A DNA stretch of 44,207 nt, from IMG/VR virus record IMGVR_UViG_638341086_000016; one strand, 5' to 3'. Below the pieces are notes generated by a model. It saw nothing but the letters and a program-made list of their open reading frames with translations. It was not told the origin of the DNA and did not search any database. Positions 2,686 through 33,205 of this stretch are shown here, piece after piece (the first letter of the stretch is position 1; each line of letters starts with the position of its first letter). Both the position numbers and the translations under genes were made by a program. The stretch comes from a virus. Taxonomy: Duplodnaviria > Heunggongvirae > Uroviricota > Caudoviricetes.

Positions 2686-5600
2686 TCAGCATTCCTCCGT
2701 CACGTCGCATGGACAGCATCACCGCCTGCACCCGCTGGTCAATCAGCTGCACAAGACTGCCTGCCGCCTCCGGCCCTATCTGGCCATTAGTCCCGTCATT
2801 CTGAATGGCGATATGGTAGACCGGGGAATACACCAGACCTGCACTGCCGTTCATACTGCCCACCGCTCGCACACCCAGCGAGCCATCCGCCGCCCGGGTC
2901 AGGGGCATAATGGCTTCAGGACCGGCCTCCCCCATCAGTCCCGCCCCTTTTGCAAAGGCAAAGTACGTGGGCGTATCCACAATACTGTTGCTGTACGCAC
3001 TCAGGTTTGCCGAGGTATACACGCCGCCTTTTGCATTGGCCACCGCACCGCCCAGCCAGTCACCAATGCTGCCGAGAAATCCTCCTGCACCGGACATACT
3101 GTTTGCCGCCGTCTTAATTCCGTTGACAATCGCGGCATTCATAAGAACTTTTGAGATTTCCTGCAGTACGGATGAGGCCCAGCTGCGCCATTCCACTTTA
3201 TTTCCGTTCAGCATCTCCGTGATGTTATTCACTATCCCTGAGATACCCTCCGTCGCAAGCTGTGCTGCCTGTGAGGCGTAATCGGACGCATTATCCACCC
3301 AGTTACTGAATCCCTCCTGCAGCCCTTTCTGCCAGTCCGCACGCTGCACATCCGATTCGGCATAAAAGGCTTCCTGCTCTTTCAGACGTTCACTCAGATA
3401 CTGTGCATTCTGCGCCAGCGCCTGTCTGTAAAAATCCTCACTGATATCCCCGGTCTGATACTGAGACTGAAGGTCCGCATCCTTCTGGCGGAAGCTGTCG
3501 CGGATCTGCTGCAACTCCCGCATGCGTTCCCTGGCTCGTTCTCCCTGCCCGTACCCCAGCAGTTCGGCTTCATTTGATGCACGCGCAGCCGCATTCTCAT
3601 TCTTCAGGGTCTCTTCCCGGGATCGCAACTGTTCCCGGATTTTTTGCTGGTCAATCAGGGCCGCGTTACGCAGCAGTTCCTGCTTCTGTATCTCCGACAG
3701 GGTTTTCAGTTCGCCCTGCGCAGTCTGGTACTTCAGCTTCGCCAGCTCTGTATTCTGACCCGCCAGTGCCAGCTGCTCTTTCTGCTGCTTAAGCAGCCGG
3801 GAAAAACTGTCTTCCGCTTTTTCCGTCTCTGATTTTCCACCCCGGGATTTGGGTTTATTCGCCTCGTTATTGCGCCAGGCTTCCAGGGCATTACTGATAT
3901 AACGTTGTCTCGCCTCCTGATACGGATCACCCACAAAACCGAGGTCATCCGCCGCATACCCCAGTCGGACACGCTCTTTTTCTTCCCCTTTCAGTCTGGA
4001 CAGGGCCAGCTCACGCTCTGTTTTTGTCAGGGCACTCTGCTGTTTATCATCCAGAGTGGCCTGTGGCAGCCGTAACGGCACATTCACCAGTCCCTGCCGC
4101 TGCTGAAGCAGTTCATTACCCAGCCCCAGCAGACGGTTGAATTCCGTATGCTGACCGTTCATAACCAGCATGGACTGGTACACCTTATTCTGCTCTGCCG
4201 CCTGCTGACGAATTAACGCCACACGACGGTCTTCCAGCCCGGCAAGCACATCCTGAATGGACTGCGCTTTTTCCTGCATCTGTGCCAGACGGGACTGCTC
4301 AACGGCAAGCTGCTCTGTTGCCTGAGCAAGCCCTTCCGTTACGGTCTTCACCGAGGTCAGATGGTTTATCATGAATCCGTCACCGGTCGTCCAGCCCGGG
4401 GTCGCCAGAACATACTGATATCCTGCGATTTTTTCCTGCAGGGATTTCACCCGACTGGCCTGTTCATCAATCAGCCGGTTCTGCTCTGTCAGCGCCGCCC
4501 GTGTTCGTCCTTCATTATCTGAGGCTTCAGGCAAAGACATTGACGGCGTTTTATGCGCGATTTCATCTATCGTCAGTGCATACTGGCGCGCAGACTCCCT
4601 GGCCTGCTCCTGATTCTGGTACAGCGTGTACCATGCTGCAGCCCCCAGCATCACCAGTCCGGGTACGCCACCAACCAGCCCCAGCGCACCGCTCATCAGA
4701 CGTGAGCCCACCGCCGTTGTACTGTTCAGCGCATTCTGGGCGGCGCTTCTGGCAGCAATATTTCTGTTCAGGCGTTCCTGTGTGGCCGCCAGACGGGCCT
4801 CTGCAGCAATCTGCATCTCCGTCCCGCGGGCTGCCGCCACGGCCTGCTGAGCACGGTACACGGCTGCCCTTGCCCGCGCCGTGGCAATCTGCGTTCCCCT
4901 GAACTGTGCTTCCGCCAGTGCAACTTCATTACGTGCAGCCGTCACAAGTCCTGCCGTGGCAGACATCGCTCCGGAGGCCATATTGCCAAAGTACCGGGCA
5001 ACCCCGACGGCAACCAGCGCCCCCGCGGCTGTTGCCACATTATCAATCTGTCCGGCAACACCGTTCAGCACGCCGGAGAGCGTTTTTGTCACCCCGCTGG
5101 CCTCATTCGCACCGCCCACCCAGGCCATAAAGGCGTTTTCCACCTTTGTGATCCCGTCAGAGACCGTTTCTGGCATGGCGGCATATTCATCACGCAATGT
5201 CCCCAGCTGGCTGATTAACGCGGGCACGACTTTATCCGCCGTCAGTTTGCCGTCATCCGCCATCGCCTTCAGATCTTTACGGGCCACGCCCATGCCTGCA
5301 GCCAGTGCACGAATGATCCGGTCACCACTTTCATTGACCGAATTAAATTCCTCACCGCGCAACACACCCTGTGCCAGCGCCTGGCTGAACTGGGTGATCA
5401 CCGAACCCGCCTCAGCCGTACTGGCACCGGAGATTTTCAGCCCCGTGGAAATGGCCTCCGTCACCTTCAGCACATCATCAGCACTGTAACCATATTCACG
5501 CATCGAGGCAGCCGAACGGGCAAACAGGGCCGCATTATCCGAAAAAGCGGTACCTGTCCGCTGACTGATATCCATCAGCACTTTCTGTGATGACGAAAAT

Positions 5601-8223: not shown

Positions 8224-8570
8224 TTTTCCCCTCCCAGNCGACAGAGAATTTCCAGACGCCCGCCGGTCGCATCCGGCACGGGCAGCCCGACAACGTTCAG
8301 GATCCGGTCACGCCATGGACCACTCAGCACATGAAGTCGTGACGCTGCCGTGATTTCCCGGCCGGACTGACCGCGCACCCAGATGCGGATTTCCGCCTGC
8401 GCCATTTCCGCACCGGACTGCATCCGCTCCCGGCTGCTCCTGCCACGGATATCCGCATGAATTTTCCCGCATGACACCCATTCTTCCGTCATTTCTCCGG
8501 CAGCATTACGGGTTAACACCGGGTTCAGAACACTTATCATCTGTGTCAGACGACCTGCAGATATTGCCAT
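8220..8570 (-). CDS. head closure / head-tail adaptor protein
   Basis: 116 aa; ...ADIRG...SGREITAAS... pattern typical of head-tail joining proteins; contains one ambiguous codon. Confidence 0.6.
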   Translation of the reverse strand: MAISAGRLTQMISVLNPVLTRNAAGEMTEEWVSCGKIHADIRGRSSRERMQSGAEMAQAEIRIWVRGQSGREITAASRLHVLSGPWRDRILNVVGLPVPDATGGRLEILCXLGGEK

Positions 8571-8579
8571 TCCCCCTCC

Positions 8580-8906
8580 TCATAACACCGTCGGACAACG
8601 CAAATCGTAAATCAGCACGGAAACAGAAAACGGCAGCTCCCCCTGAATCAGTTCTTCCCGCTCCGCAAGATCCGGATTCCGGTACAGCATCCCGGTCAGT
8701 CGCATGGCAGCCCCCTTCATCCGGGTTAATGCCTCGCCCGGGATCAGTTCACCGTCCTCACGAATCACCTTATCCCGGCTGCCCTGAATGTAGGCCAGCA
8801 GCACGGCGGTAGCCTGACGAACCTTGTCCATCAGCATGTCATCATCCGCGTCATGGTCGACACGCAGATGTGCCTTGATCTCTTCCAGTGTCAGTAATGC
8901 CGTCAT
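8580..8906 (-). CDS. gp6-like head-tail connector protein
   Basis: 108 aa; N-terminus LLTLEEIKAHLRVDHDADDDML is the hallmark of gp6-like connectors. Confidence 0.7.
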   Translation of the reverse strand: MTALLTLEEIKAHLRVDHDADDDMLMDKVRQATAVLLAYIQGSRDKVIREDGELIPGEALTRMKGAAMRLTGMLYRNPDLAEREELIQGELPFSVSVLIYDLRCPTVL

Positions 8907-20968: not shown

Positions 20969-22819
20969 TTATGCTGCGGGTGCATTTATCTCCAGCACCA
21001 GACTTTCTATCTCAACGCCATACGCTGCATTTTTTGTAACATCCGTCAGCGTCAGCGCATTCAGCCCCAGTGTCAGACTGTCTTTTATGACCTGGAATGC
21101 CGGGCCAGCCACTCCATTCAGTTTCGGAGTAACCGTGGCACTGCCGGCGGTGAACACCAGCTCCAGCGTCTGCCAGTCGTTACCGTAATCGCCGAACTCC
21201 CCCAGCTTCGTGTTTCCGNCTTTCCTGTGATGCATCAGATTCACTCTGCCGTCAGTGGTCTGAGTNAAGTACGACATCAGGAACGGATTACCGGTACCNG
21301 TCATCGCCACACCATCAGGAACGGGAGCNTCCGTATACAGATAAATCCCCAGCCCGAACTGATNGTTGGTCAGTGCGCCTGACAGGCGGAACTTACAGGT
21401 CAGTCTGCCGCCCTGTGTCAGCAGGGTAATTGTGTCATCCACCGGATGCGTCAGGGACCAGGNTTTATTGCTCTGCTTGGNGATCTTAAATACACCATCT
21501 GACAACTGAATTCCGCCATCCTTAATGCTCCAGCCCTGCGCAGCAGCCTCTCCGGCTGTCGGCAGCAGGGAGATTGTACGGACGGATGTATCTTCAGACG
21601 GCCCTGATGGTGTGTCATCGCCGGGAGAGGGTTTGATCTCCGGGGCTTTACCGCTGATGAAGGCGCTGGTTCGACCAACTGCGTTCAGAATAGCAGTTGC
21701 CAGACGATCAGGAATAATGCCCCTGCGCGCCCATGAACTGAAATGTGTCGGACGATTTGACGATACCCAATTACCATTACTACGGGATTGCGCGCCGTAA
21801 TAACCTGCATCAGCAATATCCGGGTCTTCTGCCGGTAAGTTGGTGGGCGTGTTGTTGCCGTTACCGTCTGTCATGAAGGGCACAAAATAAACGCCCTCAC
21901 TCTCCCTGTTTTTATACCCGCCGTACACGGTGTCGTACTGGGTAGCGTATGTATTTTTCCAGTAATACGTCGTGTCACCACAAATCCACGGCACATCTGC
22001 AGCACTGCCACCATGGCACTGCGCGTTAAACACGGAGAGGTCAGCACGAAACTGTGTCAGCATGGCTGTAAACAGCGCAGGTTGCTGTGCGTGGGTGGCG
22101 GCGCTCATGTCAAACTCACCCTGCATCCAGCAGACGGCCAGCAGAACGTTTTTGGGATTTTTCTGCAATGCCGCTTTTGTGCGGGAAATCAGATCCTGAT
22201 ATAACGGCTTGCCCACCCCCCAGCGTGCCGAATCCTGACTGGCCCCCGTGGACTCGCTGAATGTCCCCTCCGCGCCCTGGGTAAATGCCGAACCACCACG
22301 ACAGCATGGTACCAGCAGGATCCCCGCGTTATTCGGGATATACGGGAGCAGTTTTTTGGCAATATGTAAACCCTGGCCGACACAGCCGTACTGCCCTTTG
22401 CTCAGGTCAGCCCTCGGATGATTCAGCGTACTCATATCCTGCACATCATGCAGACAGTGGTCAGCCGGAATAATATCGTTATATCTGCAGGCAGCCCCGC
22501 CCGGCGTCACTGTACTGCGGCGCGCCAGCTGTTTAATGCGCGGATCCGGAGCATCGTATGAATCCGGCAGCGGAAGCCCTTCACCGTAAGCCATGGCATT
22601 GGACTGCCCGGCCAGTACGATGACGTAGTACCAATCCGGCTCAGATGAAGGGCCGACCTGTGGCTCTCCTTCAATAGCCACCGCCTGCATCAGTGTGTAC
22701 GGCGTAATGGCAACCGGTCCGCCGTATGGCTGCCAGCCCTCTTTCAGTTTGTGTGTCAGCTTTTCCGCAAGGTCTGACGGCGACGCCGCCCTGACAACAT
22801 CATAATGTTTAATCGACAT
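20969..22819 (-). CDS. nanS-p: prophage sialate O-acetylesterase NanS-p (DUF1737 N-domain plus SASA/SGNH esterase domain)
   Basis: 616 aa; N-terminus MSIKHYDVV...; esterase motif VLAGQSNAMAYGEG; position between holin and the stx-equivalent slot; several X residues from ambiguous bases. Confidence 0.8.
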   Translation of the reverse strand: MSIKHYDVVRAASPSDLAEKLTHKLKEGWQPYGGPVAITPYTLMQAVAIEGEPQVGPSSEPDWYYVIVLAGQSNAMAYGEGLPLPDSYDAPDPRIKQLARRSTVTPGGAACRYNDIIPADHCLHDVQDMSTLNHPRADLSKGQYGCVGQGLHIAKKLLPYIPNNAGILLVPCCRGGSAFTQGAEGTFSESTGASQDSARWGVGKPLYQDLISRTKAALQKNPKNVLLAVCWMQGEFDMSAATHAQQPALFTAMLTQFRADLSVFNAQCHGGSAADVPWICGDTTYYWKNTYATQYDTVYGGYKNRESEGVYFVPFMTDGNGNNTPTNLPAEDPDIADAGYYGAQSRSNGNWVSSNRPTHFSSWARRGIIPDRLATAILNAVGRTSAFISGKAPEIKPSPGDDTPSGPSEDTSVRTISLLPTAGEAAAQGWSIKDGGIQLSDGVFKIXKQSNKXWSLTHPVDDTITLLTQGGRLTCKFRLSGALTNXQFGLGIYLYTXAPVPDGVAMXGTGNPFLMSYXTQTTDGRVNLMHHRKXGNTKLGEFGDYGNDWQTLELVFTAGSATVTPKLNGVAGPAFQVIKDSLTLGLNALTLTDVTKNAAYGVEIESLVLEINAPAA

Positions 22820-22899
22820 CGAATTTCTCCCGTGTACAGGAACAGAGTTAAAAAGCCGGAATCAAATCGCAGGATGAACATCTGCCAGTGGCTGGTCGT

Positions 22900-22926
22900 A
22901 AAAAAAAGGCCGCGCCATGCGCAGCC
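22900..22926 (-). terminator. strong intrinsic terminator upstream of nanS-p
   Basis: 8-bp stem GGCUGCGC-AUG-GCGCGGCC (one G-U pair) followed by U8-9 on the - strand. Confidence 0.6.
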
Positions 22927-23141
22927 GGAAATAAAGGGATAACGATGATAGTTTGAGAAAAACAGAAATAACACTTTTGTGGCAAAGCATGGTGCCGGGT
23001 GCCTCCCGGTGAATTCAGCCGGTGTCACTGAACCCGCGTCGGCTTGCCTATAACATAATAAATGCTACCCACACCAGTCGCCCCTCCGCACAGGGGGATT
23101 CACCATGCAGAAGTGTTTTTAATAAACAGCAAACAAAAAAA

Positions 23142-23312
23142 TCAAGCATTATGCAGGCTGTTTCTTTTTATCACCGGCCACAGCAATACCACAATGCCGC
23201 AGACCAGCACCCCATCCGCCAGCACCGACATGATTCTGCTGGTGAAATCCACCATCACCACCAGAAACAGCAGGAGTGCAGCCACAGCCAGGCGCAGTTT
23301 TACCGTCACAGG
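23142..23312 (-). CDS. small hydrophobic two-helix membrane protein (about 56 aa), translationally coupled to the TerB-like gene
   Basis: Hand-translated: GTG overlapping the TerB-like stop (GTGA) then VTVKLRLAVAALLLFLVVMVDFTSRIMSVLADGVLVCGIVVLLWPVIKRNSLHNA; below the 60-aa track cutoff. Confidence 0.4.
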   Translation of the reverse strand, partial: PVTVKLRLAVAALLLFLVVMVDFTSRIMSVLADGVLVCGIVVLLWPVIKRNSLHNA

Positions 23313-23767
23313 TGATTCTCCAGACGAAGACCCAGAACACCGGCAATCTCTTCCAGCACCTTACACTCTTCCGGCTCAATTTCGCCTTCGGCCTCCGCAA
23401 TGGCCACCGCCACATCCAGCACATCTTCCGCTTCACGCGTATCGTGTTTCACATCCTCGATCTCACGTAACGCCGCACGACGACCAATTTTAAAGTTCGT
23501 ATCCAGCTGACCGATAATGGTTGCGCTCATCGCATTAATTTCTGACGTAAACGCGGACAGCGCTGGCTGATTACGCAGTACCTGTTCGATCTTCGCTTTC
23601 TCGGAAGCCTCACATTCACCATCTGCACAGGCCACCAGGTATGCGGCGTTAATCACCGCCTGTGCCAGATCGCGTTTTTCAAACTTTTTAATTTCCGTTG
23701 CCGCTCTGCGGGCTTTTTTTACCAAAAATACCAAACATCGTGACGTTCCTTTGGGTGGGTGAGCCAA
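23306..23767 (-). CDS. TerB-like (tellurite-resistance TerB family) protein; 5' end apparently frameshifted in an A7 run
   Basis: 153-aa track ORF with TerB-type LVACADGECEASEKAKIEQ block; the only RBS-preceded ATG (about 23738, AAAGGAAcgtcacg-ATG) is in another frame and stops after 16 codons at the A7 run (about 23713..23719). Confidence 0.6.
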   Translation of the reverse strand: MAHPPKGTSRCLVFLVKKARRAATEIKKFEKRDLAQAVINAAYLVACADGECEASEKAKIEQVLRNQPALSAFTSEINAMSATIIGQLDTNFKIGRRAALREIEDVKHDTREAEDVLDVAVAIAEAEGEIEPEECKVLEEIAGVLGLRLENHL

Positions 23768-23909
23768 CGCCCGGGAGCGATCTGCCCACAGAGAAAGTCA
23801 CACTGACCACTCCGTAAGCTCCCCCCCGAAAGGCTCTGTGGTTGGTATGCGCCGGGCGTGGCGCGGATACAAAAAAGGTCCGCAAAAGCGAGCGAGGGAA
23901 AATAAGTGT

Positions 23910-23986
23910 GGTGCGTTGTACTGGGTTCGAACCAGTGACCGATTGCTTAGAAGGCTGGCGTTCTATCCCGATGAGCTAATGGCGGT
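23910..23986 (-). tRNA. tRNA-like sequence, Arg(UCU)-type anticodon loop, probably degenerate
   Basis: Reverse complement contains D-arm TAGCTCA...ATAGAAC, loop CTTCTAA and T-arm ACTGGTTCGAACCCAGT, but acceptor and anticodon stems do not pair in my reading. Confidence 0.4.
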
Positions 23987-24062
23987 TGGTGGCCCTTGCT
24001 GGATTTGAACCAGCGACCTGGCGATTATGAGTCGCTCGCTCTCACCACTGAGCTAAAGGGCC
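23987..24062 (-). tRNA. tRNA with anticodon CAU (Ile2/Met type, ileZ-like as in Stx-phage tRNA clusters)
   Basis: Reverse complement GGCCCTTTAGCTCAGTGGTGAGAGCGAGCGACTCATAATCGCCAGGTCGCTGGTTCAAATCCAGCAAGGGCCACCA folds as a cloverleaf (acceptor GGCCCTT/AAGGGCC, D-stem GCTC/GAGC, T-arm GCTGG-TTCAAAT-CCAGC), encoded CCA. Confidence 0.8.
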
Positions 24063-24071
24063 GAGCGCAGG

Positions 24072-24100
24072 ATGATAACGTTACGAAATCAATGTTGCAA
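24072..24100 (-). promoter_or_regulatory. candidate sigma-70 promoter directly upstream of the tRNA genes
   Basis: On - strand TTGCAA - 17 nt - TATCAT, with the -10 ending about 9 nt before the tRNA 5' end. Confidence 0.45.
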
Positions 24101-24282
24101 GAGTTCACAAATTCACTGATTCAAAATTATTCTTGTAAAAAATCTTTTAACGTCAGGCACAAAGAGCCTGTACATAGATTTGTGTAATTGCCTGATTTTG
24201 ATATGTTCAATCCAGCATCAAATGAAGGTTAATTTATGGACGAAAAACAGTTACAGGCTCTAATGACCTTTATACGATTGAC

Positions 24283-24375
24283 CCAAATAAAAAAAGCCAC
24301 CGTTGCAACTTAAGAGTCACTAACGGCAGCTTATGCGAATAGTGTTGCTCATTTGCTCAACGATGTCAACACGTT
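24283..24375 (-). promoter_or_regulatory. candidate late promoter region downstream of Q (-35 TTGACA at 24364..24369) with a U7-tailed weak hairpin (about 24290..24325)
   Basis: Perfect -35 hexamer just after the Q stop but no convincing -10; the hairpin CCGTT...AACGG followed by TTTTTTT could be a tR-prime-like terminator. Confidence 0.3.
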
Positions 24376-24864
24376 CTATGCTACATGTTTAATTTTCTCT
24401 ACACGTTTCCGGTTTTTAAACGCACTATCCAGAATCGGATAAATCATAAACAACGAGGCATTGAGGATTTCGTCAACTTCCCGTCGACAGGTTGCTAGCG
24501 ATGGTTTTTGAATGCGCCCGCCGCCCCGGCATAACATCTTGCGAGGTCTTGCGACGCTATGATAGTAAGATGCAATGGCGTGCTTGGAAGAGCCGTGGGC
24601 GTAGTAGCTGAGGAGGATGCCAAAGGCTTTCTTGTCAATGTACATGACGGAATCGACGACCTGAGAAATCAACATTCCATCATCATCATTACACATTGGC
24701 CTTGTCATAACTCTTCCCGGCTCCACGCTCTCCATGAATTTAGCTATTACGCTGCTCATGCGCTTTTCCAGACGACCTGAATAAACCCATGCGCCCCACA
24801 GTTCAAGCCAGCCATTCAGCCACTCATGCTGTTCTTTGGTGAGGTTTAGTTCTCTTATGCCCAC
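24376..24864 (-). CDS. Q: late antiterminator Q (phage-21/82-type)
   Basis: 162 aa; [11 protein letters not shown] block and Cys/His-rich middle typical of the antitermination-Q family; located between nin genes and the tRNA/lysis region. Confidence 0.8.
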
Positions 24865-27602: not shown

Positions 27603-27763
27603 AATGACCTCGCGTTTCGATAATTTTTACCTCGCCACCGTCAGGTGCTAATCATCGTGGTGGCGAACTGTGCGGGGTTAGCACTACCGGTCGAAACATC
27701 CGGCGAGCCTTTCGGCTCCCCCACACAGCCCGCCATAAATCGCGAATGTGACTGTGCTTAGCG

Positions 27764-27788
27764 CATAAAAAAACCGCCAGCGCGGTTA
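27764..27788 (-). terminator. terminator-like hairpin AACCGC-CAGC-GCGGTT plus U-run downstream of ninE
   Basis: Same 6-bp stem as at 5937 and 13650; A7 on + strand. Confidence 0.5.
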
Positions 27789-27877
27789 TGCACCGTTTCG
27801 ATATCCGGGGTGCTAATCCCGACGCCAGATTTTGCTGGCGCGTGAGGAATATAGCCCCGAATAAATCATCGCGTCAA

Positions 27878-28060: not shown

Positions 28061-28584
28061 GCCGCCATCCTGACGCCCTGCCCGATCGCCATCAATGCCG
28101 CTTTGGATACNGTAGTAAACATNCGTCGAGGACTGATGAACGGTCGCCAAATCAGCAGCATGGANCCTTTGCTGTTTCCCTTCTTCTCCAGCCCTGTCGA
28201 TGGTTCGATAAAATTAATCCGTCCATCAGTGATAATGCGAACTTCGTCAACACTCTCCAGAGCCTTGCTGAACCATCCGACTGACATATCCTCTGGTACA
28301 AGCATAACTACCGTCTGTCGCTGTTGTATGCACTGCTCAGCGGCTTTTTCCACCCACGGCCTGATATTGCTGTACGGTGGGTTATTCCAGATTGCACCGT
28401 GGCTTACCCACTCAGAATTGAGCGCGTCGTCGGCCTCAGTTAGCCAGTGAGCACACAGAGCATTTTTGTCGCTCGCTGCCGAATCCAGCCAGAATCCAAA
28501 CTCAATATCCAGTGCATCAAAAAGCCAAAGCGGCGTTTGCCAGCAGTCCTTGTCGTGTGCTGGCGTATTTGATTTGATAGTCAT
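28057..28584 (-). CDS. DNA N6-adenine methyltransferase (phage Dam-like)
   Basis: 175 aa; N-terminal ...[13 protein letters not shown]... and catalytic NPPY motif (IWNNPPYSN); C-terminal part contains X from ambiguous bases. Confidence 0.8.
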
Positions 28585-29927: not shown

Positions 29928-30218
29928 TCATCTTTTAACTCCATATACCGCCAATACCCGTTTCATCGCTGCACTCTGGCGACACTCCTTAAAAATCAGG
30001 TTCGTGCTCACCTTTCCTTCCCGTTCTTCCCTGGTAGCAAACCGGTAATACACCGTTCGCCAGACCTTACCTTCGATAACCAGAAGACCTGCCCGTGCCA
30101 TTTTAGCCGCGGCCTGATTTATGCTGGTTACTGTTGCGCCTGTTAGCGCGGCAACGTCCGGCGCACAGAAGCTATTATGCGTCCCCAGGTAATGAATAAT
30201 TGCCTCTTTGCCCGTCAT
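29928..30218 (-). CDS. ren: Ren protein
   Basis: 96 aa MTGKEAIIHYLGTHNSFCAPDVAALTGATVTSINQAAAKMARAGLLVIEGKVWRTVYYRF..., essentially lambda Ren. Confidence 0.85.
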   Translation of the reverse strand: MTGKEAIIHYLGTHNSFCAPDVAALTGATVTSINQAAAKMARAGLLVIEGKVWRTVYYRFATREEREGKVSTNLIFKECRQSAAMKRVLAVYGVKR

Positions 30219-30916
30219 ACACTTGCTCCTTTCAGTCCGAACTTAGCTTTAATTTCTGCGATCTTCGCCAGCGCCTGAACATGATTTAGAGGTCTGCCGC
30301 CCATGACAGGAAGTTGTTTTACTGGTTCAGGGATCACCTCACCACGATTAATTCTCGCAGTCATATGGACAAGCTCATCTGCGGCCTTGCGCCGTAATTC
30401 CGCGTCAGTCAGCGCATTGGCCCGCATGTTCTGGTACAGGTTGGTAACCAGCCAGTAGTGCGCGTTNGATTTCCACGGATAAGACTCTGCATCCGGATAC
30501 AGGCCNCGCTTCCGGCAATACTCGTAAACCATATCAACCAGCTCGCTGACGTTTGGCAGTCCGGCGATAACGGATGCTTCTTCCCGGCACCATGCAACAA
30601 ACTGCCCGGGTGATGGAAGAAATGGTCGATTCTGCCGACGGGCTACGCGCATTCCTGCGTTAACCTGTTCCATCGAGGTGATCCCGTTTTCCCGGAAAGC
30701 CAGAACCCACTGGCGGCGGATTTCATTCAGTTCGTTCTGGTCCCGGTTAGCCAGACTCGCCGGGAAAGTTGCCAGTAACTGGCTGAACACACCGTTGATG
30801 ATCTGCGCTACCTGTTGTACCTGCGGCTTTTCGTCGTACTGTTCCGGCATGTTGTTGGCGATCAGACGCATCTGCTCACGGTCAAAGTTAACCATCTGTG
30901 CGGCGATGTTTTTCAT
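30215..30916 (-). CDS. P: replication protein P (DnaB helicase loader)
   Basis: 233 aa, lambda P-like over full length (MKNIAAQMVNFDREQMR...KFGLKGASV); two X residues. Confidence 0.9.
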   Translation of the reverse strand: MKNIAAQMVNFDREQMRLIANNMPEQYDEKPQVQQVAQIINGVFSQLLATFPASLANRDQNELNEIRRQWVLAFRENGITSMEQVNAGMRVARRQNRPFLPSPGQFVAWCREEASVIAGLPNVSELVDMVYEYCRKXGLYPDAESYPWKXNAHYWLVTNLYQNMRANALTDAELRRKAADELVHMTARINRGEVIPEPVKQLPVMGGRPLNHVQALAKIAEIKAKFGLKGASV

Positions 30917-31784
30917 AAATCCACCCCGTAAATCCAGTCAGTGTTTGTCAGGTCGAGTTTTGGTTTTCCAGCTGTCACGCCAGCCTGTTGCTTGTTACGG
31001 TTGATTTCGAGTTGGGTCCACTTGTCGCGGAGTTTGGCCGGACTTAGCACGTTACCGGACCAGAAGTTGTCCTGGCATGCCCAGCGGAACAGCACGCACA
31101 TATCGCGGTGGTTACGTCCGTCACGTTCACGCATCAGGCGGATATCGTTAGCCCACCCTGCAAAATTCGGTTTTCTGGCTGATGGTGCGATGGTCTTCAC
31201 CATGTCAAACATCCACTCTGCGGCGGTCAGGTCTTCTGCTGTTCCCCACTTGCTGCCGCTCTGAATTGCAGCATCCGGTTTAACCACAGAAAGATCGTTT
31301 TCTGGCTGGTCAGAGGATTCGCCAGAATTCTCGGACGAATAATCTTTTCTTTTTTCTTTTGTAATAGTGTCTTTTGTGTCCCCCTGTTTTGAGGGATGTC
31401 CCTCATTTTAGGGGAACCTCCCTCGTTTTGAGGGATGCACCATTCTGAGATGTTTTTATTTGGTCCAAACATGCCGCCTTGCTGCTTGATAATATTCATT
31501 CTGACGAGTTCTAACTTGGCTTCATTGCACCGTTTGACAGGTAACTTTGTAATCTCGCTAAGTTGAGAATCGGTGATTCTGTCCATTGGTTTATTCCACC
31601 CATAGGTTTTACGCAGAATGGCAAGCAGCACTTTAAACTGTCGCTTGGTCAGATCTGCGCCTGAATAAGCCTCAATCAGCATATTTGATAGTCTGGCGTA
31701 ACCATCATCGAGATCTGCCACATTACGCTCCTGTTCGGCAAAGTTACCTCTGCCGAAGTTGAGTATTTTTGCTGTATTTGTCAT
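30913..31784 (-). pseudogene. O: replication initiator O, split into two frames inside the ori iterons
   Basis: Track ORF 31227..31784 is the lambda-O N-terminal DNA-binding domain (MTNTAKILNFGRGNF...EWCIPQNEG) and 30913..31287 is the O C-terminal domain (...AAEWMFDMVKTIAPSARKPNF...TDWIYGVDL); they are offset by one base with a TAA in the downstream frame. Confidence 0.75.
31378..31435. repeat. ori iterons (three copies of TCCCTCAAAACGAGGGA-type repeat) with AT-rich region at about 31290..31375
   Basis: On - strand TCCCTCAAAACGAGGGA, TCCCCTAAAATGAGGGA, TCCCTCAAAACAGGGGGA; lambda has four, the third appears absent here. Confidence 0.8.
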
Positions 31785-31816: not shown

Positions 31817-32113
31817 TCAGAATTGCATATCAATTTGCTTAGAGTCCCCGGCGGCCACCGGGGATTTTCTCTTTGTGATTTCATCAAGCGCATACTTAAA
31901 AGCCCTGCTAATCGGACTGATGTCTGATGCCATTCCGAAAGCACACAAGACCGAAGCAATAAATCTCCAGTCCGTTCTGCTTATCTTCGATTCATGACAG
32001 CCAATCATCTTTGCCAGACCGCGCTGGGTAAGCGTTGACAGGTTGATGAGTAAATCAGTTTCAGCGCGATCAATTTCTCGCTGTGTTGGCTTGCTGTAGC
32101 TTGCTTGTGCCAT
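31817..32113 (-). CDS. cII: transcriptional activator CII
   Basis: 98 aa; helix-turn-helix ...LAKMIGCHESKISR... and C-terminus ...KQIDMQF parallel to lambda CII ...QIQMEF. Confidence 0.8.
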   Translation of the reverse strand: MAQASYSKPTQREIDRAETDLLINLSTLTQRGLAKMIGCHESKISRTDWRFIASVLCAFGMASDISPISRAFKYALDEITKRKSPVAAGDSKQIDMQF

Positions 32114-32557: not shown

Positions 32558-33205
32558 ATGAAAACGATGCATGAAATTATCGGGGAAAGGATCAAGTCCC
32601 TTAGAGAAGCTAAAGGACTTAGCCAGGCTCAATTGGCCAAGCTTTGCGGCTGGGCTGCGCCTTCACGCCTGGGGAACTACGAGTTAGGAACAAGAAAGGT
32701 TAGCGCGGATGACGCGCTGGTTCTTGGGGCGGCACTCGGCGTATCTCCGGCAAAAATAATGTTTGGCGAGGATTCAGACGCCGTATTTCGCCAATATGAA
32801 TACCCGTTATTTTCTTCAGTGCAGGCCGGGCCATTTTCGGAGGTGGGAAGCTACACAGCCAGCGATGCAAAGGCATGGGTCCCAACGACCACAAAAGCCA
32901 GCGAAAAAGCTTTCTGGCTTGAGGTGAAGGGGCATTCAATGACGGCGCCTCAGGGGGTTCGTCCAAGTTTTCCGGAAGGCATGCTGATACTCGTTGATCC
33001 GGCTGAGCCGGTAGAGTCTGGGGATTTCTGCGTGGCTTCTGCAAATGGTGATTCAGAGGCAACGTTCAAGAAGTATGAGAAGGATGCAGGGGTTAGTTAC
33101 CTGGTACCTTTAAACCCGGCATATAGAACCCTGGATTGCGACCATAGCTGCCGCATCATAGGCAAGGTAGTTAAGGCGCAGTGGCCTGAAGAGACGTTTG
33201 GCTGA
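32558..33205 (+). CDS. cI: CI prophage repressor (HTH plus LexA-like S24 autoprotease domain)
   Basis: 215 aa; N-terminal HTH ([12 protein letters not shown]), C-terminal ...GHSMTAPQG... and ...ATFKKYE... signature of S24 repressors. Confidence 0.9.

Follow-up and report, generated by a model that had tools for sequence, protein, structure and literature searches.

The stretch of DNA analysed here (the window; 44,207 nt, IMG/VR record IMGVR_UViG_638341086_000016) contains a lambdoid prophage whose early-right operon lies on the minus strand in the order cII (32113..31817), O (31784..30913), P (30916..30215) and ren (30218..29928). The cII gene is directly upstream of O in the same operon, and in related loci PF05269 was found on a 98-aa gene at this position, just upstream of O. 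The replication gene P, which overlaps the O stop codon by 4 nt, encodes 233 aa and is intact except for two ambiguous bases (PF06992, E = 8e-61).

A functional O of the lambda or 933W type is expected to span 299–312 aa. In the window the gene is not continuous, and it contains no second indel that restores the frame. Its N-terminal ORF begins at an ATG and occupies 31784..31227 on the minus strand (185 aa). Residues 1–133 are native and comprise the DNA-binding Phage_rep_O domain and the start of the linker, whereas the final 52 residues are out-of-frame read-through that ends at a TGA codon (31229..31227). The Phage_rep_O model (PF04492) is complete in this ORF, with residues 22–115 covering all 95 model positions (E = 2.6e-36). 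The C-terminal part lies in the −1 frame relative to the N-terminal ORF, where 164 codons are open (31407..30913, minus strand), and its residues 5–164 correspond to residues 153–312 of 933W O. The two frames overlap by 181 nt (31407..31227). The earliest start codon in the C-terminal frame past the TAA that closes its 5' side is a GTG at 31287, which would give 124 aa; no Shine-Dalgarno-like sequence was seen just upstream of it. The C-terminal domain of lambda O recruits P and the host DnaB helicase. A preliminary description of this DNA had proposed that O is split at its own origin into parts that lie in different frames and are both near-identical to lambda O, and our alignments bear this out (125/129 residues for the N-terminal part and 159/160 for the C-terminal part).

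Between the N- and C-terminal parts of O lie three iterons of 18 bp each. Iteron 1, ATCCCTCAAAACGAGGGA (31436..31419, minus strand), equals 933W iteron 1 and corresponds to iteron 1'' in the scheme of Kozlowska et al. (PMC7466680), which is outermost and weakly bound. Iteron 2, TTCCCCTAAAATGAGGGA (31416..31399, minus strand), equals 933W iteron 2 (1'). The third is a hybrid (31397..31380, minus strand): its first 12 nt, ATCCCTCAAAAC (31397..31386), are common to 933W iterons 3 and 6 and hold the deletion junction described below, and the remainder is iteron 6 (lambda ITN4). The count of three repeats is therefore as first described; the range given for them, 31378..31435, was in the right place, with ends that are off by one or two bases. 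The full array, which comprises four iterons in lambda and six in Stx phages, is absent from the window. The AT-rich arm of the origin beside the array (31379..31336, minus strand) has been kept intact; it is identical to that of 933W and contains three in-frame A_AAG sites (31374, 31359 and 31347).

The preliminary description also drew attention to a TAA in the downstream frame. This triplet is present (31410..31408), where it closes the C-terminal frame on its 5' side, but it lies within iteron 2, upstream of the junction. It is a native out-of-frame triplet of that iteron, neither a new mutation nor a product of the deletion.

The appropriate comparator for O is 933W and not lambda. The array measures 57 nt in the window and 85 nt in lambda, so that the figure of about 28 bp missing relative to lambda, as initially reported, is arithmetically correct. 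It is a by-product of the comparison, and the actual event is a 67-bp loss relative to 933W. The best database matches to O are 933W, H-19B, VT1-Sakai and other Stx phages, which are 99.8% identical but 939 bp long compared with 872 bp in the window. Moreover, iteron 2 and the spacers of the window (GG, AAAATG and C) are those of the six-iteron 933W type, unlike those of lambda. Aligned with 933W, the window is identical over 361 aligned window bases save for a single 67-bp gap. The 933W record annotates six iterons, the third and sixth of which likewise start 67 bp apart (1955 − 1888). The resemblance is not due to chance, since, the deletion aside, one synonymous base is all that separates the 872-bp gene from 933W O (871/872 nt identical). 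Both halves translate to 933W O residues 1–133 and 153–312 with zero substitutions (133/133 and 160/160).

This alignment indicates that a 67-bp segment, running from where iteron 3 begins to where iteron 6 begins, was removed in one clean, in-register event, with the loss of three of six iterons. The earlier suggestion that one of lambda's four iterons is missing thus does not hold: the ancestor is of the six-iteron 933W type. The proposal that the missing length is not a multiple of three stands, at 67 bp, and the downstream frame has moved to −1 because 67 = 3 × 22 + 1. Given that the origin lies inside O, a single event removed three initiator-binding sites and shifted the reading frame, and hence, as anticipated in the preliminary description, one lesion damages initiator gene and origin together. 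The 67 bp were probably lost when the 12 nt with which iterons 3 and 6 both begin recombined, either by strand slippage or by unequal exchange. The deletion is recent, with the caveat that the undecayed state of O and P, together with the largely intact prophage in the window, would fit a lesion that is either "recent or mildly tolerated".

Because tandem repeats are involved, we considered whether the short array could have arisen by collapse of the iterons in a draft assembly of a genome that truly carries six. The window contains 15 isolated N (at 8238; 21219–21481, seven sites; 28111–28165, three sites; 29018; 30467; 30506; and 36712), several of them clustered as would be seen in a consensus over similar co-resident prophages, and it is common for an STEC genome to carry multiple near-identical O genes (at up to five places). 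However, none of the 15 N falls within O, and iterons 3 and 6 share 12 identical bases only, which we judged too short for assembler collapse. Furthermore, 42 finished genomes share exactly this junction, as do independent assemblies from several sources. An assembly or sequencing artefact is thus hardly credible as the explanation, and the allele is real, independent of the window's assembly. The N clusters lie inside the esterase gene and the nin region, and two N introduce X residues into P; overall, the pattern suggests a consensus over near-identical co-resident prophages.

The exact 58-nt junction was found as one copy each in 42 of 5,426 complete E. coli genomes, and the intact six-iteron junction in 524 places in 357 complete E. 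coli genomes. The deleted form therefore accounts for approximately 7% of 933W-type arrays in complete genomes (42/566), many of the 42 being clonal O26:H11. Both forms are co-resident in some genomes (E2865, RM10386 and RM8426). An end-to-end match to the window was not found in any complete genome, the best matches being ~97% identical. The label "replication protein, frameshifted" (PGAP, NCBI) was present in all four complete genomes whose annotation was examined, and RefSeq pseudogenes with an identical junction and a gene of 872 bp include ECO26_RS31175 (O26:H11 11368), ACZ51G_RS06440 (OkiPb01717) and CR540_RS08930 (14EC047). No paper describing this allele was found in our literature searches, and a paper on Stx-phage replication regions makes no mention of a truncated or frameshifted O. 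The lesion is an ordinary one that is already known, as an annotated pseudogene, from public E. coli genomes.

The exact 185-aa ORF was present in 45 blocks of a public assembly index, and the 23 contigs examined from this set carry at least six immunity-region/repressor-gene types and varied nin regions. The intact 312-aa ORF occurs on at least 1000 contigs compared with 29 for the split form. Among cluster members of 215–295 aa we found no frame-restoring variants; each proved to be a piece of the intact six-iteron gene cut off at a contig end. The junction gave no matches in GTDB representative genomes, but this negative is uninformative because the set has one genome per species. It was likewise absent from all 50,697 phage records searched, 72 of which contain the intact six-iteron array; the six-iteron counts are drawn from these records and from the complete E. 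coli genomes. At the chromosomal frequency, approximately five phage records with the junction would be expected, and the probability of observing none is ~0.004, a figure to be read with the qualifications that the records are non-independent, that many "phage" records are extracted prophages and that many of the 42 genomes are clonal O26:H11. The absence of the allele from phage records is suggestive, and it fits non-viability.

What the lesion would mean for replication can be judged from work on a closely related origin. In the Stx phage P27, the six iterons are ordered 1'', 1', 1, 2, 3* and 4, followed by the AT-rich arm, and clear protection by O was observed only at the four AT-proximal iterons (PMC7466680). 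In that numbering, the iterons left in the window are 1'', 1' and 4; those deleted, 1, 2 and 3*, would by analogy be three of the four that O clearly protects. The three retained iterons were classed as the weakly bound ones, although iteron 4 is among the four AT-proximal, clearly protected sites of P27. Disruption of iteron 1 or iteron 1' alone, the two that were tested, abolished P27 plasmid establishment while the protein was unchanged (PMC7466680). O uses its N-terminal half to contact the iterons, and neither arm of the origin is dispensable (PMC4488673). In the window, the DNA-binding domain has been separated from the C-terminal domain and half of the binding sites are gone. Since disruption of either tested iteron stops plasmid replication in a six-iteron Stx-phage origin, we infer that initiator and origin are both dead and that the prophage would be unable to amplify after induction. 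In this scenario, the derepressed prophage could not assemble an O-some, theta replication from its own origin could not start without one, and the prophage would stay at single copy and yield little or no phage. Recombination with a co-resident intact copy could repair the lesion. Overall, a replication-defective prophage is the most likely outcome, and we put the probability of a loss-of-function lesion in a 933W-type lambdoid replicon at roughly 0.85.

The exact −1 relationship of the C-terminal frame raises the alternative that the replicon is leaky or assisted, that is, attenuated and not dead. Low-level −1 slippage at A_AAG in the AT-rich arm would yield an O of 290 aa whose linker is shortened; alternatively, O could come from a co-resident prophage, and in either case the three iterons with the AT-rich arm would fire weakly. 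The overlap between the frames contains three in-frame A_AAG sites and one A_AAA, and A_AAG is a minimal −1 shift site in E. coli that has compensated a nearby frameshift mutation (PMC5009743); a trace of full-length O protein may therefore be made. The linkers of lambda O and 933W O already differ in length by 13 aa, no further damage has accumulated in O and P, and E2865, RM10386 and RM8426 hold intact six-iteron copies beside the deleted allele. On the other hand, a canonical X_XXY_YYZ heptamer was not found in the 181-nt overlap, which contains only Z_ZZN tetranucleotides, and no protein product, of whatever length, would mend the defect in the origin. The closest tested origin fails after the loss of one iteron, whereas here three of the four clearly protected iterons are gone. 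The allele occurs in none of the phage records (0/50,697), the intact single ORF is the norm (at least 1000 contigs versus 29), and the allele is also found in the plainly decayed prophage of O26:H11 11368, which lacks cI and cro. Taken together, these observations make weak residual replication quite improbable. We also considered a programmed −1 frameshift gene. A −1 overlap is present, but there is no X_XXY_YYZ heptamer, the split is not conserved in homologues and it derives from deletion of an intact gene, features that speak against this candidate.

Completeness of the Phage_rep_O domain raises a different possibility, namely that the remnant is retained because it is useful. The truncated DNA-binding domain or the residual iterons would act as a dominant-negative protein or a decoy, damping co-resident or incoming phages of the same O specificity. 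Ectopic copies of ori-lambda arrest lambda replication by titrating O (PMC4488673), oop with iterons gives an exclusion phenotype (PMC3349717), and the allele is frequent among 933W-type arrays in complete genomes. These published effects were obtained from multicopy plasmids, however, whereas the prophage is present in single copy. The O region of lambda is transcribed only after derepression, and the same would apply to the fragment in the window. In O26:H11 11368, no cI or cro is annotated upstream and the promoter region is apparently gone. Finally, the out-of-frame tail shows no sign of selection. We consider such a retained function very improbable, and the reading as a loss-of-function lesion remains the preferred one.

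Related arrays indicate that such deletions are not confined to this allele. IMG/VR arrays with these flanks fall into discrete classes, with 63 arrays at 85 nt (four iterons), two at 57 nt and one at 104 nt; no arrays with fewer than three iterons were found in IMG/VR. The 104-nt array (L082, IMG/VR UViG_2671180417_000002, 4833..4967) has five iterons owing to a 20-bp in-register deletion between iterons 3 and 4. It represents a second kind of frameshifting iteron deletion, in which O ends at 135 aa. A four-iteron array in another record (L070, IMG/VR UViG_2740892234_000001) consists of 933W iteron 1 and a hybrid of iterons 2 and 4, the product of an in-frame 39-bp deletion that is distinct from lambda's four-iteron arrangement. 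Four-iteron origins can thus arise from six-iteron ones by more than one route, and the two records together indicate that iteron-to-iteron deletions recur. As judged from flanking SNPs, the three-iteron alleles occur on at least three cII haplotypes and at least two O C-terminal haplotypes, a spread that fits lambdoid mosaic recombination as well as it fits recurrence of the 67-bp event.

These observations invite a broader proposal, in which the array would be a built-in self-inactivation hotspot. The 67-bp deletion and relatives such as the 20-bp deletion would arise repeatedly, lysogens would favour a dead replicon that spares the cell replicative killing on induction, and the spread over immunity types would reflect recurrence and selection and not drift. 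If this were true, prophages, including those that carry stx, would be locked in the chromosome and toxin gene dosage would be lowered. We regard this proposal as doubtful.

Apart from the replication region, the part of the prophage contained in the window appears largely intact, with terminase, portal domain, capsid-protease fusion, tape measure, lysis genes, Q, cI, a cro-like gene and integrase. A portal span at 8903..11487 comprises a 454-aa ORF with a complete portal domain and, after a 4-nt overlap, a 407-aa ORF without a clear domain. In a close relative this span is annotated as a single frameshifted portal gene, and other genomes list two portal CDSs. An 83-nt tRNA-Ala(CGC) called by ARAGORN at 32756..32838 on the plus strand lies within the cI repressor ORF and is absent from the Rfam report; the call is probably a false positive. 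In the nin region, matches to C4 antisense RNA, its a1/b1 target and isrK lie beside antirepressor genes (27656..27854, minus strand); together they form an immunity module of the P1/P7 type within a lambdoid prophage.

A 1.3-kb IS3-family element at 41162..42471, with two transposase ORFs and an ALIL frameshift pseudoknot (42020..42136), sits in the 3' end of a DUF4222 gene. Beyond it lie a stretch that matches the excisionase-like DUF1233 gene of relatives and the integrase, whose stop codon is the end of the window. In two relatives that share this gene order, DEC5E (six iterons) and 14EC047 (three iterons), the integration site is beside mlrA.

The interval from Q (24376..24864) to a 616-aa SASA esterase gene includes a slot (22819..24376) that corresponds to the position of stx in Stx phages. 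In the window we found no stx or toxin genes between Q and the esterase gene; the slot contains a TerB-family gene (23306..23767), a tRNA-Met (23987..24062) and a match to the STnc100 sRNA (22951..23137). Two other contigs with the same O allele, L004 (19455..20558) and L008 (14256..15482), also encode both Shiga toxin subunits, A and B, at a site downstream of Q; the A subunit has 319 aa in L004 and 315 aa in L008. Some Stx prophages, exemplified by these two contigs, may therefore be unable to amplify. That the allele lies beside stx in these contigs and is spread over many mosaic backgrounds would also be compatible with one that is still travelling. It is generally held that a prophage must be induced and replicate for Stx output; the allele, some copies of which adjoin stx genes, could therefore, once tested, serve as a cheap marker for low-yield Stx prophages. 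For replication biology the lesion opens no new question, and it should not surprise a specialist. In practical terms, the prophage in the window should be treated as replication-defective and not as a lambda-like phage with a variant four-iteron origin.

Among copies of the deleted allele, that of 14EC047 is in a prophage at mlrA whose overall gene order is as in the window. The three RefSeq pseudogene copies nonetheless differ from the window in their immunity regions and accessory genes, and the prophage that holds the O26:H11 11368 copy, at the lambda attachment site, has decayed much further and has no annotated cI or cro upstream.

The closest intact system is the O gene and origin of 933W (NC_000924 13556..14494; also H-19B, VT1-Sakai and P27), which matches the window in iterons 1, 2 and 6, the AT-rich arm and the cII-O-P-ren order. 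The difference is that 933W has six iterons within a single 312-aa ORF, whereas the window has three iterons and two out-of-register ORFs. Lambda O and ori-lambda (NC_001416 38686..39585) share the family and the architecture, with an origin inside O that consists of 18-bp iterons and an AT-rich arm. The lambda array nevertheless has four iterons over 85 nt, and its iteron 2 and spacers differ from those of the window. Functionally, the nearest counterparts are the iteron 1/1' mutants of P27 and the lambda mutants r99 and ti12, which, as proposed here for the window, carry cis-acting origin lesions that impair or abolish replication (PMC7466680, PMC4488673); r99 maps to the AT-rich arm, outside the iterons (PMC4488673). 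Those mutants were designed or selected to spare the O protein, whereas the deletion in the window also frameshifts O.
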